Below the pieces are notes generated by a model. That model worked only from the letters and a program-made list of their open reading frames with translations, was not told the DNA's origin and did no database searches. Position numbers and translations under genes: made by a program. Shown in pieces: positions 6,260 through 30,784 of a DNA stretch of 53,243 bases (the first letter of the stretch is position 1; each line of letters opens with the position of its first letter). The DNA comes from Verrucomicrobiota bacterium. Its GTDB lineage: Bacteria > Chlamydiota > Chlamydiia > Chlamydiales > Rhabdochlamydiaceae. Location: contig JAFEGU010000114.1 in the NCBI GenBank assembly GCA_018239725.1, forward strand, positions 1 to 53,243, in the 5' to 3' direction.

Positions 6260-7768
6260 ATGGAAAACAGTGCTTCTTATCAGTCGCAGCAGGTTAAAAG
6301 TGGAGTCTATCCATTAAACGTAGCGAAGGCCGTTCAATGGATGCTTTTATTAATCATCGCGTATTTTCCCTTTCAAAAACGATTTTCAAGCGCTCTAAAA
6401 GGGATCTCCTACTCATTTGTCCCCTCCCATGTCGAGCTTCCCTCCTTTTTCTCAAAAAAAATGGACTTCTATTTTACCGACTTGATCATCTTGCTGATGA
6501 TTGGATTATGTTTGTATCGAGGACGGAAGAGGGTGGGAGCTTTTTTATTCAGCGGTCCAGCAAAATTTTTGATCCTTTTCTTCGCCGCTGCAGTGTTATC
6601 CGTTGCTTGTTCCGTCACGGCTGACTATGCGATCCAATACTATCGCCTGGTGCAGCTTCTTCTCTTTTTACTCCTGTTCTGCTCCATATCTGATGTCTTA
6701 AGATCATTGGAGGTACAGCAACTAGTCAATCGGATATTTTGGGTTTTTTTGTTTGCAGCTTTGGTTGAATGCGGCATCGGGATTGCCCAGTACTTTATGC
6801 AAGGATCGTTAGGACTCAAAAGCTTAGGAGAAGTCAATATTTCAGGCTTTCATTTCCCGATGCAAGGGGGCTATCGATGGATCATTGATGAATGGACTGG
6901 GTGCATGACTGATCGCACTGTGTTATGCCGATGCAGCGGAACCTTTACCCATCCTAATATCCTGGGAGGATTCCTTTTTGCATCGCTGCTCGCAACGTTT
7001 TATCTGATTATCGTCGAAAATAAAAAAACAGTCCGCAGGCTGCTTTATGGTGCCATATTCATCCAAATCTTCACCTTGGCGATCTCGTTTTCTCGAGCTG
7101 CAATCATTGCAACGGTGATCGGCGTCTTCGTTTGGTTCGGTGTCTCTATGGTCAAATTCTTTCGCAAGGAAAAACGGAACGACCTTTTTTTTCTAAGAAG
7201 AGTTTCGGTGATTGCTGCGGTCTTGGTCAGCGCCTTGATCTGCTTATCGTTATTTTATAATCAATTTTTTTCTCGCGGCGGAATTATCAATTACAACCAA
7301 GTTGTCGCCGTTGCTGACCAGGAGCGGATTGTTTATCAAAATATCGCTTGGGAGATGTTTAAGGATCACCCGATATTGGGAGGGGGGTACAATAATTATC
7401 AAATTTTAAGCCACGAATACATTCCAGAAAATAATACAAGCGTCCTTTTCGCTAAGGTTCATAACATCTATCTTCTCGTGCTTGCGGAAACAGGCTTGTT
7501 GGGAGCTGGAGCTTTTGTTTTGTTTCTCATCTCCCTTTTTAAAAGGGTATTAAGGAGGGCAGACGACGAAGCAATCCAGACCGCATTAGCGATCTTTGCA
7601 GGATTTTTGTTTATCGGCCTCTGTGATTTTTACTTCCTGCATACCCATCATGGAAAATGTCTCTTTTTTCTGTTTGCTGCTTTGCTGCAGGCTGACTTAA
7701 AAACGTTCAAAAGGCCTGAGCCTTTCGTGGAGCAAATCAGCCAACCAGTAGGGAGCAAGTTGGATTAA
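6260..7768 (+). CDS. O-antigen ligase/polymerase family membrane protein (Wzy_C/WaaL-like)
   Basis: Polytopic membrane protein with the characteristic late motif AKVHNIYLLVLAETGLLGAGAFVLFL. Sits immediately upstream of wzm/wzt. Confidence 0.72.
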   Translation: MENSASYQSQQVKSGVYPLNVAKAVQWMLLLIIAYFPFQKRFSSALKGISYSFVPSHVELPSFFSKKMDFYFTDLIILLMIGLCLYRGRKRVGAFLFSGPAKFLILFFAAAVLSVACSVTADYAIQYYRLVQLLLFLLLFCSISDVLRSLEVQQLVNRIFWVFLFAALVECGIGIAQYFMQGSLGLKSLGEVNISGFHFPMQGGYRWIIDEWTGCMTDRTVLCRCSGTFTHPNILGGFLFASLLATFYLIIVENKKTVRRLLYGAIFIQIFTLAISFSRAAIIATVIGVFVWFGVSMVKFFRKEKRNDLFFLRRVSVIAAVLVSALICLSLFYNQFFSRGGIINYNQVVAVADQERIVYQNIAWEMFKDHPILGGGYNNYQILSHEYIPENNTSVLFAKVHNIYLLVLAETGLLGAGAFVLFLISLFKRVLRRADDEAIQTALAIFAGFLFIGLCDFYFLHTHHGKCLFFLFAALLQADLKTFKRPEPFVEQISQPVGSKLD

Positions 7769-7849
7769 TAGCAATTTTCCGAGGAGAAATCGGTTGACTT
7801 CTACCAGGAAACGGACTAACCTCATGCCTAGTCTAAATCCATAAAAATT

Positions 7850-8668
7850 ATGAAGCCGATTATCGTTCAAGCCACTTCGGGATGGTCCCGGATCAACATC
7901 CGGCAGCTTTACAGCTATCGCGAAGTGCTATTTATGCTTTTGCGTCGCAACTTGAAAGCACGCTATGCGCAAACCTATTTGGGAGTAGGCTGGATCCTTT
8001 TTCAACCACTTTTTACCGTCCTTCTCTTTTCTGTTATTTTTGGCAGATGGATGCAGATGTCAAGCGACGGGGTCCCTTATTTTCTGTTCGCTTTTACAGG
8101 TTTGATCTGTTGGATTTTTATTTCAAGCTGCATTCAGCGGGCAAGCGGCATTATGTTGATGGATAGCCGGCTTATTACAAAAATTTATTTCCCGCGTCTA
8201 TTAATGCCTTTGGCATCCCTATTAGAAACTCTGATCGAAACCTTTTTTCTTGTCGCTGTTTTGTCTTTGCTTTTGCTGTTCAATCCTACTCTTATCAGCT
8301 GGAAAATGACGCTTTTTCCTTTATGGATTGTACCGCTTTGCCTGTTGGGCTTAGGGATGGGTTCTCTCTTTTCTTCATTAGGCGTTTACTATCGCGATGC
8401 AGTAGCTTTACTTCCGTTTTTTTTACAGACCTGGATGTATTGCTCTCCCATCGTCTATTCAACCTCGGCCGTTCCTGAAAAATGGATTTCATTGTACCGC
8501 TTGAACCCGATGGCCGGCATCCTTGATGCGATGAGATGGAGTTTTCTTAACGGCTCAAATTTTCCAACAACCAGTTTCCTTACAGCGTGCTGCGTGGCCC
8601 TATTTATCGGGTTTGCAGGCGTATATATTTTCTGTCGATTGGAACGCAACTTCGCTGATGTGCTATGA
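7850..8668 (+). CDS. wzm: Polysaccharide ABC transporter permease (ABC-2 type, Wzm/TagG/KpsM-like)
   Basis: N-terminal LLRRNLKARYAQTYLGVGWILFQPL motif typical of ABC-2 exporters, six TM segments, and ATGA overlap with the ATPase gene. Confidence 0.82.
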   Translation: MKPIIVQATSGWSRINIRQLYSYREVLFMLLRRNLKARYAQTYLGVGWILFQPLFTVLLFSVIFGRWMQMSSDGVPYFLFAFTGLICWIFISSCIQRASGIMLMDSRLITKIYFPRLLMPLASLLETLIETFFLVAVLSLLLLFNPTLISWKMTLFPLWIVPLCLLGLGMGSLFSSLGVYYRDAVALLPFFLQTWMYCSPIVYSTSAVPEKWISLYRLNPMAGILDAMRWSFLNGSNFPTTSFLTACCVALFIGFAGVYIFCRLERNFADVL

Positions 8669-29020: not shown

Positions 29021-29758
29021 ATGTCGAAATTTCTTCTGTGCTTATCTGTCATTTTTGGTTTCCTATTTGCTTCCCATTTAGAAAGTGCTAGTGTGTCTCA
29101 TGAAGATGGGGTTGCCCATTATATTGATCTTAGCCAAATAGATATTCCGAACCAGTTTGGATATTTCCAACACATGTTCGCCCGCGGAGCGTTCAATTGG
29201 GCACCAGAGATCGGCTCCTTTGTCAACATGCTAAAAACCCGCTACAACATCAATACGGCTATCGAAACGGGTACGCTATATGGCCATACATCCATCTTTC
29301 TAGCTAGCATTTTCGATCAGGTTCATACTATCGAGATCAATCCATCAAATTACCAAACATCGGTGAGTTACCTGCGTGGCTCGCCGAATGCAGTTTGTCA
29401 TCTGGGAAGTTCGGAGCAGGTGCTCAAAGAGATCCTTCCAGAGCTCGAAAATCAATCTTTGCTTTTCTACCTTGACGCCCATTGGCAAGATTATTGGCCC
29501 TTGTTGGACGAGCTCGAAGAAATCAGTAAAACCCACAAGGATAATTGTATCGTTGTTATTGATGATTTCAAAGTCCCGGGAAGGCCAGATATTCCCTACG
29601 ATATATCGGGATCTGGTCTAGATGAATGTTCTTACGATTATGTCAAAGCTAAGTTGGAAAAAATCTATTCCGATTATGAATATTATTATGTTCTTCCAAA
29701 AAGGATAGACTCTAAAGCCAAACTTGTCGTGATTCCCAAAGCTTGGGAGCGTCTATAA
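29021..29758 (+). CDS. Putative SAM-dependent methyltransferase-fold protein with signal peptide (paralog B)
   Basis: Collinear with 25059-25793 (AIETGTLYGHTSIFLA, LLFYLDAHW, IVVIDDFKVPGRPDI, AKLVVIPKAW). ATG at 29021 (the ORF track uses the TTG at 29018). Confidence 0.5.
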   Translation: MSKFLLCLSVIFGFLFASHLESASVSHEDGVAHYIDLSQIDIPNQFGYFQHMFARGAFNWAPEIGSFVNMLKTRYNINTAIETGTLYGHTSIFLASIFDQVHTIEINPSNYQTSVSYLRGSPNAVCHLGSSEQVLKEILPELENQSLLFYLDAHWQDYWPLLDELEEISKTHKDNCIVVIDDFKVPGRPDIPYDISGSGLDECSYDYVKAKLEKIYSDYEYYYVLPKRIDSKAKLVVIPKAWERL

Positions 29759-29833
29759 AAAGGCCTTTTACGCATCTTTTGGACGCCAGGTTTTTTAAAC
29801 GTTTCTCGAATTTATTAATAAAAGGAGTCGATA

Positions 29834-30784
29834 ATGAAACCAATTATAAAAATTCTGTTTTGCCTGGTAGCAAGTGTTTTAATTGGCAAGCCGATGCTTG
29901 GAACATCGACAAACTACGTCACATTATGCGATGCAAATGGTCGGTTTAAAACAGGCGATCAATTTGGCGGACAATTGCTGAATATTGTTTCTCTCCTGGC
30001 ATATGCATGGGACCATGATCTCGTGCCCTATTTTCCCAAGGATTTTTTGCTGCGCACCAAGGGAGCTAGCATCAACTACCCCTACGTTTTCAACCGGTTA
30101 AATCAAGAGCTTCCCGATCATGTCGACAAAAGCATGCCGTTGCATATTTCAGATCTCGATTATTCTCTCTATCCAGGACGCAATGTATGTTTGTGCGCGG
30201 CGGGCATCTATCCCTATGCCCACCATCGGGATCGGTTAAGGGAGTATTTTGCTCCCACTGACACAGTCAAGCGATACCTCAATCAAAAATATGAACAGAT
30301 TTTCAATCATCCGAAGACGGTTGCTGTCCATGTGCGCACTTATCATCCCAATATCAACAACACCCTTTTCTTTTTAGGAAGGGAATATTTCCAATCTGCA
30401 ATGAACCATTTTACCGATGACCATCTTTTCGTCATCTTTTCTGACCGGATTGAGTGGGCCAAGCAGTATCTGGCAGGAGCTAAACCGAATATGATTTTTA
30501 TTCATGAAGAGAACCATATTCTAGAGTTTTACTTGATGACCTATTGCCTCAACCATATTATTTCGAATTCTAATTATAGCTTTATGGCTGCATTCTTAAA
30601 AAACAATCCGGCTGGCGCGACCCTAGGACCAGAAATTTGGTTATGCAACACGAAGCCGGAAATGTACTTTGGTATGTATTTCCCAGGCTGTATCACTTTG
30701 CCGGTAGGGGCTTCCCATCCAGCCGATTGGAACTTGCTGAGGTATTCAACGACATCGATCGATGAGGGCGGGCCCAAATATTAA
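29834..30784 (+). CDS. GT11-like glycosyltransferase, paralog 4
   Basis: AAAGGAG Shine-Dalgarno upstream. NGRFKTGDQFGGQLL, HVRTYHP, FVIFSDRIEWAK, HIISNSNYSFMAAFL. Tail TTSIDEGGPKY. Confidence 0.72.
   Translation: MKPIIKILFCLVASVLIGKPMLGTSTNYVTLCDANGRFKTGDQFGGQLLNIVSLLAYAWDHDLVPYFPKDFLLRTKGASINYPYVFNRLNQELPDHVDKSMPLHISDLDYSLYPGRNVCLCAAGIYPYAHHRDRLREYFAPTDTVKRYLNQKYEQIFNHPKTVAVHVRTYHPNINNTLFFLGREYFQSAMNHFTDDHLFVIFSDRIEWAKQYLAGAKPNMIFIHEENHILEFYLMTYCLNHIISNSNYSFMAAFLKNNPAGATLGPEIWLCNTKPEMYFGMYFPGCITLPVGASHPADWNLLRYSTTSIDEGGPKY

Follow-up and report, generated by a model that had tools for sequence, protein, structure and literature searches.

Do the glycan genes gathered around topA in a chlamydial genome form one cytoplasmic assembly line, or do their products work in two compartments? 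The question is raised by the window analysed here, an entire contig of 53,243 nucleotides (JAFEGU010000114.1, assembly GCA_018239725.1, deposited as a Verrucomicrobiota bacterium and placed in the Rhabdochlamydiaceae by GTDB). It carries 17 glycan-family genes on one strand within 24.5 kb, which is a non-chance arrangement. The original prediction had described this span (6260-30784) as an ABC-transporter-type surface-glycan locus for a long, probably mannose/6-deoxyhexose-containing, methylated polysaccharide or protein glycan, a model in which the glycosyltransferases (GTs) and methyltransferases (MTs) would serve a single cytoplasmic pathway. Here, we found that the genes on one side of topA (module A, 6260-14358) belong to a known type of O-polysaccharide pathway, and that most GTs on the other side (modules B and C, 18999-30784) carry predicted export signals. 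Since nucleotide sugars are found in the cytoplasm, one expects bacterial Leloir enzymes to work there, and these signals are a more surprising point than the O-antigen-type locus itself. We propose, with about even confidence, a composite locus round topA, in which module A would make and export a mannose-based chain and the enzymes of modules B and C would decorate outside the cytoplasm.

Domains were called with Pfam gathering cutoffs on the 39 main open reading frames (ORFs) of the contig. NCBIfam equivalog models were run on the glycan genes and gave no match above cutoff for any of them, and the assignments are therefore made at family level only, without specific enzyme names. For the relatives, one genome per GTDB species was scanned and the 80 best topA loci were kept as synteny anchors, against which the window proteins were searched by tblastn; gene counts and co-occurrence refer to the 35 species-level loci with at least 8 kb on either side of topA.

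Glycan genes and their predicted export signals

The most fitting reading of module A (Table 1) is a compact O-chain pathway that is mannose-based and depends on an ABC transporter. That the layout of Wzm/Wzt with ManC and Gmd, a GT4 enzyme and a Wzy_C protein is that of an ABC-transporter-dependent O-polysaccharide pathway had been predicted, and the Pfam matches bear this out; in relatives these genes lie near GT9. Among the NCBIfam models, Wzm best matched KpsM and the galactan Wzm, both below cutoff, and Wzt, whose gene overlaps wzm by 4 bp, best matched galactan Wzt/RfbE (179 bits) and TagH, again below the equivalog cutoffs. By Pfam, the Wzt protein consists of the ABC domain only, with no C-terminal carbohydrate-binding domain, indicating that the methyltransferases of the locus are not chain terminators of the O9a type. 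Further, these methyltransferase-fold proteins (~245 aa) have no WbdD-like kinase or coiled-coil part. The GT4 enzyme adjoins ManC in 22-23 of the 35 loci and gave 'first mannosyl transferase wbaZ-1' as its best PDB sequence match (5.7e-20), and is a probable mannosyltransferase.

The module contains two membrane proteins of WaaL/Wzy type, and for both of them the family and fold level cannot separate WaaL, PglL and Wzy. The first has ~10 hydrophobic segments and no match in a PDB sequence search, and its orthologues (31-42% identical) adjoin uvrB or topA in relatives; it is a candidate WaaL-type ligase, with a PglL-type O-oligosaccharyltransferase as the alternative. The second had been called a second Wzy-like membrane protein. 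It shows no Pfam match of its own, the PDB search was empty and BLASTP against Wzy_C was not significant. The AlphaFold2 (AF2) model (pLDDT 88.6) nevertheless has a WaaL-type fold, with the WaaL ligase 7tpg as top Foldseek match (TM 0.57), followed by FtsW and RodA; moreover, Wzy_C was matched in 7 of the 30 homologues scanned from a family of 348 representatives, one of which is fused to Wzz. Its start probably lies near 13165, giving ~397 aa. In two relatives with ~70% identical TopA (L024 and L030), ManC, GT4, Wzt and Wzm are contiguous and accompanied by a Wzy_C gene, and in L030 GT9 directly adjoins Wzt/Wzm and is read from the same strand, and in L024 it is on the opposite strand at a distance of two genes. 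GT9 is the family of core heptosyltransferases of lipopolysaccharide (LPS), which indirectly ties module A to LPS, and the GT9 of the window is a probable cytoplasmic LPS-core enzyme.

Beyond topA, modules B and C consist of GT2, GT32 and GT11-like enzymes and two methyltransferase-fold proteins. The Wzy_C, ABC2_membrane, Glyco_transf_11, Gly_transf_sug, GT2, GT4 and GT9 models named in the original prediction all pass the Pfam gathering scores, and its gene list was nearly exact with the right coordinates, apart from the outer membrane protein (OMP) and methyltransferase matches, which are weak and below cutoff. The start of GT2a was corrected to ~18999 from 18672. Its AF2 model (pLDDT 90.5) shows two tandem GT-A domains, with DGDD in one half and an invariant DD in the other, and its Foldseek matches are the two-GT-A enzymes PmHS2 (1.8e-18), K4CP, COLGALT1 and LH3. 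The 480 homologues of GT2a appear to form a family restricted to chlamydiae, the named ones being Chlamydiota, Rhabdochlamydiaceae, Simkaniaceae or (probably mislabelled) Verrucomicrobia. GT2b is 46% identical to the first GT2a domain, with a 4-bp overlap between its start and the GT2a stop. The three GT32 paralogues are translationally coupled, match PF04488 at 8e-11 to 1e-14 (43-55 bits against a cutoff of 23), keep an invariant DXD motif (D169-H170-D171) and each end in a C-terminal transmembrane segment. MTa and MTb are 64% identical, and MTa matched the COMT structure entry 4p58 at 0.0035.

The four GT11-like paralogues share 5 invariant Cys, the first three being 62-64% identical to one another, and match PF01531 at 51-59 bits against a cutoff of 23.9, over model positions ~104-281 of 298; a PDB sequence search with GT11a gave no match. 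In the donor motif, HVRT[YF]HP or HIRTYHP stands in place of the classical HxRRGD, with the His and first Arg kept and RGD replaced. The MT-GT11 island (25000-30800) has a GC content of 38-40% against ~47% in the flanks. It holds two MT and four GT11-like genes here, against one of each in the closest relatives L001 and L003, which argues for an expansion in the window genome. A recent tandem duplication is ruled out by the 65-85% DNA identity and 62-64% protein identity of the copies, which by these values are old, retained paralogues. No repeat boundary marks the island, and the window contains neither tRNAs nor Rfam families and thus no insertion landmark for it.

The export signals divide these enzymes from those of module A. 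Sec-type N-terminal signals were predicted on GT2a and GT2b (signal-anchors), GT32a, GT32b, the four GT11-like proteins, MTa, MTb and the prolyl 4-hydroxylase (P4H) beside topA. The signals of GT32a (MNRLLIFFFLFLLPFFVHS/ES; slash, end of the signal region) and GT32b (...AAIMPGFA/IEK) are of the cleavable type, and the signal of MTa reads ...FIGNVQS/ARF. At the level of families, GT32 proteins carry an N-terminal hydrophobic region in 114/118 cases, a lipobox in 74/118 and a C-terminal transmembrane segment in 117/118; in at least 12 loci the hydrophobic region of the GT32c orthologues ends in a [GS]-C lipobox, e.g. LLVGC/GKKKG. Short signals of the cleavable type occur in nearly all of the 53 GT11-like family members, and 109/120 of the GT2a family carry a signal, anchor or lipobox, some of them AxA-acidic types directly before the first beta-strand. 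As controls from the same loci, N-terminal hydrophobic or signal segments were counted in 0/36 GT4, 0/39 ManC, 0/21 GT9 and 0/48 proteins of the neighbouring hyp258 family. The same partition is seen in two other loci (L086 and L087), where GT6 and GT32 on one side of topA bear signals, and GT2, GT4, NTP-transferase, Wzx and Wzy_C on the other side are signal-less; their GT25 genes are signal-bearing wherever located. The catalytic domains of the GT32, GT11-like, GT2 and MT proteins are accordingly predicted, from sequence, to lie outside the cytoplasm, and the claim of one cytoplasmic line for all GTs and MTs was not supported, given the signals on GT2a/b, GT32a/b, the GT11-like proteins and the MTs, and the independence of the modules described below.

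The topA site in other chlamydiae

The assignment of the window to a chlamydial genome, made in the original prediction, was confirmed. TopA carries a C-terminal SWIB domain, a fusion that is a chlamydial hallmark; it is a housekeeping anchor of the site and not a glycan gene. TopA identity across the 80 best loci is 62-93%, and the named records among them are mostly Chlamydiota metagenome-assembled genomes (MAGs), including Rhabdochlamydiaceae and Simkaniaceae, so that by its topA relatives the contig falls within the Chlamydiae. The order ThyX-TyrP-UvrB ... RpoN-GT9-UvrD-PutA is common to Rhabdochlamydiaceae and Simkania genomes. Eight of the loci (L001, L004-L006, L008, L027, L055 and L080) carry record titles that say Verrucomicrobia, Acidobacteria or Aerophobetes, the closest relative (93%) among them; judged by TopA similarity and common synteny, these phylum labels are probably wrong. 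One GT32 homologue carries a Melainabacteria label.

Across the 35 loci, the content of the site varies. ManC is present in 23/35, GT4 in 22/35, GT32 in 18/35, GT9 in 14/35, GT2 in 11/35 (always together with GT32), Gmd and Wzy_C in 7/35 each, Wzm/Wzt and MT in 4/35 each, GT11-like genes in 3/35 and P4H in 2/35. The presence of GT32 is statistically independent of that of ManC/GT4 (odds ratio 1.08, p = 1), which speaks against modules A and B as one co-inherited unit. In L086, a Wzx-type flippase, found in place of Wzm/Wzt, lies with RmlC, GT2, two GT4 and Wzy_C on one side of topA, and GT6, GT32 and GT25 on the other; in L087, GT4, ManC, GT25 and Wzy_C lie on one side, and GT6 and two GT32 on the other. 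The topA site is thus a variable glycan hot spot in non-Chlamydiaceae chlamydiae and not an oddity of one lineage, and a polysaccharide locus of serotype type behaves in this way, with varying content between housekeeping genes.

Next to the GT32 block and topA there is usually hyp258, a membrane protein with no Pfam and no PDB sequence match, in which the motif H103-E104-x-x-H107 is invariant; in L086 and L087, its gene shares 4 bp with the upstream GT32. It was considered as a glycan enzyme, but it lies at topA in 28/35 loci against 18 with GT32 and has the HExxH motif, and no assignment was made. Distant GT11-like homologues were observed in L084 (JGI 3300021041 contig) and L083, near NodZ-like, sulfotransferase, Gmd and a second epimerase-family gene, or near DUF1796, PhyH and Methyltransf_21. 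The second epimerase-family gene is possibly a GDP-fucose synthase, and fucose-related gene sets appear to occur elsewhere in apparently chlamydia-like genomes.

A proposed two-compartment system and its rivals

In canonical ABC-dependent O-antigen synthesis, the glycosyltransferases work at the cytoplasmic face, where the polymer is completed. Exported enzymes therefore cannot take part in its assembly, which makes a two-compartment system the best-supported reading. In such a system, ManC would provide GDP-mannose and Gmd would open a GDP-6-deoxyhexose branch; the WbaZ-like GT4 would build a short mannose-based chain on a lipid carrier, possibly with a contribution of the nearby GT9; and Wzm/Wzt would export the chain, which one of the two WaaL-fold proteins may then ligate, most likely to lipid A-core. 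The enzymes of modules B and C, exported by Sec or lipoprotein signals, would act in the periplasm or the inclusion lumen and decorate either the exported glycan or some other acceptor of the envelope, and the product might be fucosylated or ABH-like, with methylated host-like epitopes.

This scheme would need activated donors outside the bacterial cytoplasm, for which host nucleotide sugars and S-adenosylmethionine (SAM) are plausible. Chlamydiae import host nucleotides and SAM across the envelope. The donor problem is milder for chlamydiae because the glycogen synthase GlgA, which C. trachomatis secretes into the inclusion, uses host UDP-glucose imported via SLC35D2 (PMC4829429). We nevertheless purely infer that host donors might feed the exported enzymes. 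The Parachlamydia GT6 transfers GalNAc in a metal-dependent manner and only to H-type acceptors that are alpha1,2-fucosylated (PMC3516806), and this acceptor need suggests that the right-hand enzymes may make host-like epitopes, with the GT11-like enzymes supplying the acceptors. More tentatively, and at rather less than even probability, the phylum-specific exported GT2, GT32, GT11-like, GT6 and GT25 enzymes, with the MTs and P4H, might form a Golgi-like line outside the cytoplasm that uses host nucleotide sugars and SAM to place host-like epitopes on LPS or surface proteins, with topA marking a 'serotype' locus.

Several points weigh against the two-compartment reading. We know of no periplasmic source of nucleotide sugars in bacteria, and the altered donor motif makes the donor of the GT11-like enzymes uncertain. 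The Pfam scan of the contig ORFs showed no partner reductase/epimerase for Gmd, no other Epimerase-family ORF and no GDP-fucose synthase, and no WecA/WbaP-type polyprenyl-phosphate initiating transferase was found among the 39 ORFs; such initiating genes are often encoded elsewhere in the genome. Within 10 kb of topA, modules A and B occur together no more often than expected by chance, and a product common to both is therefore hypothetical. The signal peptides and lipoboxes are predictions made with heuristic criteria set by hand. The GT32c of the window has lost the lipobox of its orthologues (MNKTRSTLASILLKLIKGSKRKK against MNKILSVLAILLLTLTYGC/GKKKG in L001) and may, by its sequence, be relocalised or decaying, and the signal of GT11c is weak. 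Finally, in 71/109 members of the GT2a family the hydrophobic segment is followed by a flank more basic than the one that precedes it, which by the positive-inside rule would favour a cytoplasmic GT2a domain. However, lipoprotein GT32c orthologues carry KKK right after the lipidated Cys, showing that a basic flank need not mean a cytoplasmic location.

The two-compartment reading was weighed against three others. In the first, which we consider unlikely, the GT2, GT32, GT11-like, MT and P4H proteins would be eukaryote-like effectors that leave by Sec (with type II secretion or vesicles) and modify glycoproteins and glycolipids of the host or the inclusion membrane, leaving only module A to make a bacterial glycan. 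The closest solved relatives of GT32b by sequence are host-targeting glycosyltransferases that act as effectors and toxins, Legionella SetA (3.6e-10), YeGT and PaTox, the nearest relative of P4H is a eukaryotic ER/Golgi enzyme, GT2a is folded like glycosyltransferases of amoeba giant viruses, the modules are independent, and the contig encodes many eukaryote-like proteins (PARG, WD40, LRR), all of which would fit effectors. The lipobox and C-terminal transmembrane segment of GT32 nevertheless argue for retention in bacterial membranes, and across the phylum the block has a fixed chromosomal place next to LPS-type genes. Moreover, the SetA-type similarity is limited to the DXD region, in a PDB search that gave no solved Golgi-type GT32 for comparison. 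On the giant-virus likeness itself, the GT2a fold matched Terrestrivirus, Yasminevirus and Megaviridae models better than any solved structure, at 20-24% identity, which hints at gene exchange within amoebae.

Quite improbable, in our judgement, is protein O-glycosylation, with the Wzy_C proteins as PglL-type oligosaccharyltransferases that would transfer the glycan to outer membrane or periplasmic proteins, possibly onto hydroxyproline made by P4H, for the exported GTs to extend. The best NCBIfam match of Wzy_C is 'putative O-glycosylation ligase' (far below cutoff), and Wzy_C cannot tell WaaL from PglL; the secreted P4H belongs to a type that in algae primes Hyp-O-glycosylation; the collagen glycosyltransferases COLGALT1 and LH3, with their two GT-A domains, resemble GT2a; and a porin-family protein with a repeat-rich extension is encoded nearby (40661-42970, Table 1). 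Against this reading, an LPS-core family enzyme, GT9, adjoins Wzt/Wzm and Wzy_C in relatives, synteny of P4H is limited to the two closest relatives, there is no collagen-like or Pro-rich ORF within the locus, and no evidence links the repeat protein to it. A classical single pathway, in which all GTs and MTs would work on the cytoplasmic face behind N-out anchors to build a long methylated mannose/6-deoxyhexose O-polysaccharide on undecaprenyl-PP for Wzm/Wzt and WaaL, is likewise improbable, since the resemblance to polymannan-type loci (Wzm/Wzt, ManC/Gmd, many GTs and MTs), the tight one-strand packing, the basic GT2a flanks and an architecture shared with the cytoplasmic polymerases PmHS2 and K4CP stand against the GT32 lipoboxes, the AxA-acidic cleavage-type sites directly before the catalytic domain in GT2a-family members, the 10-14-residue hydrophobic stretches of the GT11-like, MT and P4H proteins (too short for a transmembrane segment, and with small residues at -1/-3), flanks made uninformative on location by the KKK after the lipidated Cys, a Wzt without carbohydrate-binding domain, MTs without WbdD kinase and coiled-coil parts, and modules that vary independently.

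The textbook chlamydial LPS is a rough Kdo-lipid A, and the glycan had been described in the original prediction as not known to have been characterised for this lineage, which agrees with our search: no published characterisation of an O-antigen-type glycan was found in the literature on O-antigen, fucosyltransferase or LPS in environmental chlamydiae, LPS, glycosyltransferases and polysaccharide are not mentioned in two major genome papers, and no publication was found that treats Rhabdochlamydia together with O-antigen. An OMP survey lists a Wza cluster, and rfbAB of Parachlamydiales are mentioned in passing (PMC6171736). A conserved, variable O-antigen-type locus in the larger, environmental branch would change the view of the surface, host range and serology of chlamydiae. 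Module A is of a known pathway type, and what is new is that Leloir enzymes with predicted export signals share this site across the phylum. If these do act in the periplasm or the inclusion, they would represent a second, much broader case, after GlgA, of the vacuole as a host-fed metabolic compartment, and they would also provide a route to molecular mimicry of host glycans. Among the Simkania and Rhabdochlamydiaceae lineages there are carriers that can be cultivated.

Neighbouring genes and known systems

P4H and topA had been taken as the only genes that interrupt the locus. Both are indeed on the minus strand, but P4H is not necessarily a mere interruption, being a secreted prolyl hydroxylase of algal type, with the signal peptide MNRKMKALLFIFMVFIGSNAQQAAA, the Chlamydomonas cell-wall enzyme Cr-P4H-1 as best PDB match (1.9e-59) and synteny only in L001 and L003. 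The OMP-like protein at 14438 is clearly conserved (79%) only in the closest relative, L001, and it is uncertain whether it belongs to the glycan system. A third Methyltransf_24 protein, near the contig start, has a signal-like N-terminus if an internal Met is its start (MHKFYWIIIFSSWMTSAFG), and its homologues adjoin glycan genes in L025 and L037. Promoter and terminator scans of the window gave no enrichment over shuffled sequences.

Elsewhere on the contig, a porin-like protein of the Legionella_OMP family has a 470-aa N-terminal extension, acidic at first and then rich in Ser/Thr/Pro/Gln/Ala, with four ~45-aa repeats (…TRQAPARRRQQPARAQSEQASAADT…); it is plausible that this extension is a surface-exposed, mucin-like substrate for the secreted P4H or the GTs. 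Leucine-rich repeat (LRR) and WD40 proteins of eukaryotic type, which are typical of amoeba-associated bacteria, lie at the start and the end of the contig, respectively. A PARG macro-fold protein represents a eukaryote-like enzyme in a chlamydia, and a NamZ-family protein a peptidoglycan-recycling one.

Table 1. Genes of the window, and signal-bearing glycosyltransferases at the topA site of two relatives
Feature	Position	Strand	Match or character
LRR protein fragment, contig start	87-428	-	
Third Methyltransf_24 protein, outside the 6260-30784 span	585-1298	-	PF13578 3e-20
Wzy_C-family polytopic membrane protein, 502 aa	6260-7768	+	Wzy_C 4.6e-20, 72 bits
Wzm, ABC-2 permease of glycan exporter	7850-8668	+	PF01061 4.5e-17, 63 bits
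Wzt, ATP-binding subunit, 254 aa	8665-9429	+	ABC_tran (PF00005) 4e-21
Gmd, GDP-mannose 4,6-dehydratase	9506-10585	+	PF16363 (GDP_Man_Dehyd) 1e-141, 473 bits
GT4, cytoplasmic, WbaZ-like	10598-11725	+	Glycos_transf_1 7e-28
ManC, bifunctional GDP-mannose pyrophosphorylase / mannose-6-phosphate isomerase	11697-13085	+	NTP_transferase, ManC_GMP_beta-helix, MannoseP_isomer domains
Second WaaL/Wzy-fold membrane protein, 441-aa ORF	13033-14358	+	homologue scan and AlphaFold fold
Signal-peptide protein, acidic N-terminal region, weak beta-barrel OMP	14438-15421	+	OMP_b-brl 2.8e-4, 21.5 bits (cutoff 28.7)
P4H, secreted 2OG/Fe(II) oxygenase, algal/plant type	15481-16245	-	2OG-FeII_Oxy_3 4e-18
TopA with C-terminal SWIB domain	16263-18947	-	housekeeping anchor
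GT2a, signal-anchor and two tandem GT-A domains, 589 aa	18999-20768	+	PF00535
GT2b, signal-anchor and single GT-A domain	20765-21703	+	GT2 Pfam
GT32a	21700-22737	+	PF04488 (Gly_transf_sug)
GT32b	22734-23807	+	PF04488 (Gly_transf_sug)
GT32c	23800-24858	+	PF04488 (Gly_transf_sug)
MTa, signal peptide and class-I methyltransferase fold (weak)	25059-25793	+	Methyltransf_24 4e-4, below cutoff
GT11a	25840-26826	+	PF01531 (Glyco_transf_11)
GT11b	26837-27811	+	PF01531 (Glyco_transf_11)
GT11c, weak signal peptide	27837-28844	+	PF01531 (Glyco_transf_11)
MTb, signal peptide and methyltransferase fold	29018-29758	+	Methyltransf_24 about 3e-4, weak, below cutoff
GT11d, signal peptide	29834-30784	+	PF01531 (Glyco_transf_11)
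hyp258, HExxH membrane protein	30851-31627	+	
PARG macro-fold domain protein, Gln/Ser-rich N-terminus	31810-33105	-	
GT9, heptosyltransferase family, beside rpoN, outside the 6260-30784 span	36055-37011	+	PF01075 3.6e-11
Porin-like protein	40661-42970	-	Legionella_OMP family
NamZ-family exo-beta-N-acetylmuramidase, signal-like N-terminus	46783-48063		
WD40 beta-propeller protein	50378-51658	-	
WD40 beta-propeller protein, contig end	51709-52974	-	
GT6 with signal peptide (blood-group A/B transferase family), topA site	L086 9353-9982; L087 6894-7622		
GT25 with signal peptide, near topA site	L086 14416-15324; L087 2175-2975		

Compared with the ABC-dependent O-polysaccharide systems of E. coli O8/O9a (polymannan) and Klebsiella O2a (galactan), the locus shares adjacent Wzm/Wzt, ManC, a GT4 of mannosyltransferase type and a WaaL-family ligase, and its short Wzt without carbohydrate-binding domain is of the Klebsiella O2a type. 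It differs in having one clearly cytoplasmic GT in module A and a second WaaL-fold protein, in lacking a WbdD-type terminator and a WecA on the contig, and in the export signals of most other GTs, which are never seen in canonical pathways. GT2a shares two predicted tandem GT-A domains, with conserved acidic motifs in each, with Pasteurella PmHS2, E. coli K4CP and human COLGALT1 and LH3; however, identity is 10-15%, and 13-15% to the PmHS2/K4CP type, the global TM is ~0.3, and GT2a has an N-terminal signal or anchor. PmHS2 and K4CP are cytoplasmic, whereas COLGALT1 and LH3 are ER-luminal.

The bacterial GT11 alpha1,2-fucosyltransferases and GT6 blood-group transferases include H. pylori FutC and E. 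coli O86 WbwK/WbnI. The GT11-like proteins match PF01531 above threshold, but they depart from these known enzymes in their signal peptides, conserved Cys, divergent donor motif and partial model match, and in being four diverged paralogues interleaved with methyltransferase-fold genes. As for the Parachlamydia GT6 (PaGT6), chlamydial GT6 genes lie at the same topA site in other genomes. With Golgi-type GT32 enzymes (Och1, MIPC synthase, A4GALT) and algal P4H, the locus shares the Pfam families, the DXD motif, a predicted non-cytoplasmic catalytic domain and membrane tethers, whereas the chlamydial proteins are bacterial and bear lipoprotein-type signals; no evidence of recent transfer of GT32 or P4H from eukaryotes was obtained. 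The gonococcal surface sialyltransferase Lst is an extracytoplasmic Leloir enzyme fed by a host nucleotide sugar. In C. trachomatis GlgA, as predicted here, a nucleotide-sugar transferase stands outside the cytoplasm of a host-associated bacterium (PMC4829429). GlgA leaves by type III secretion and makes glycogen, whereas the topA locus encodes a whole battery of GT-A and GT-B enzymes with predicted export by Sec or lipoprotein signals.

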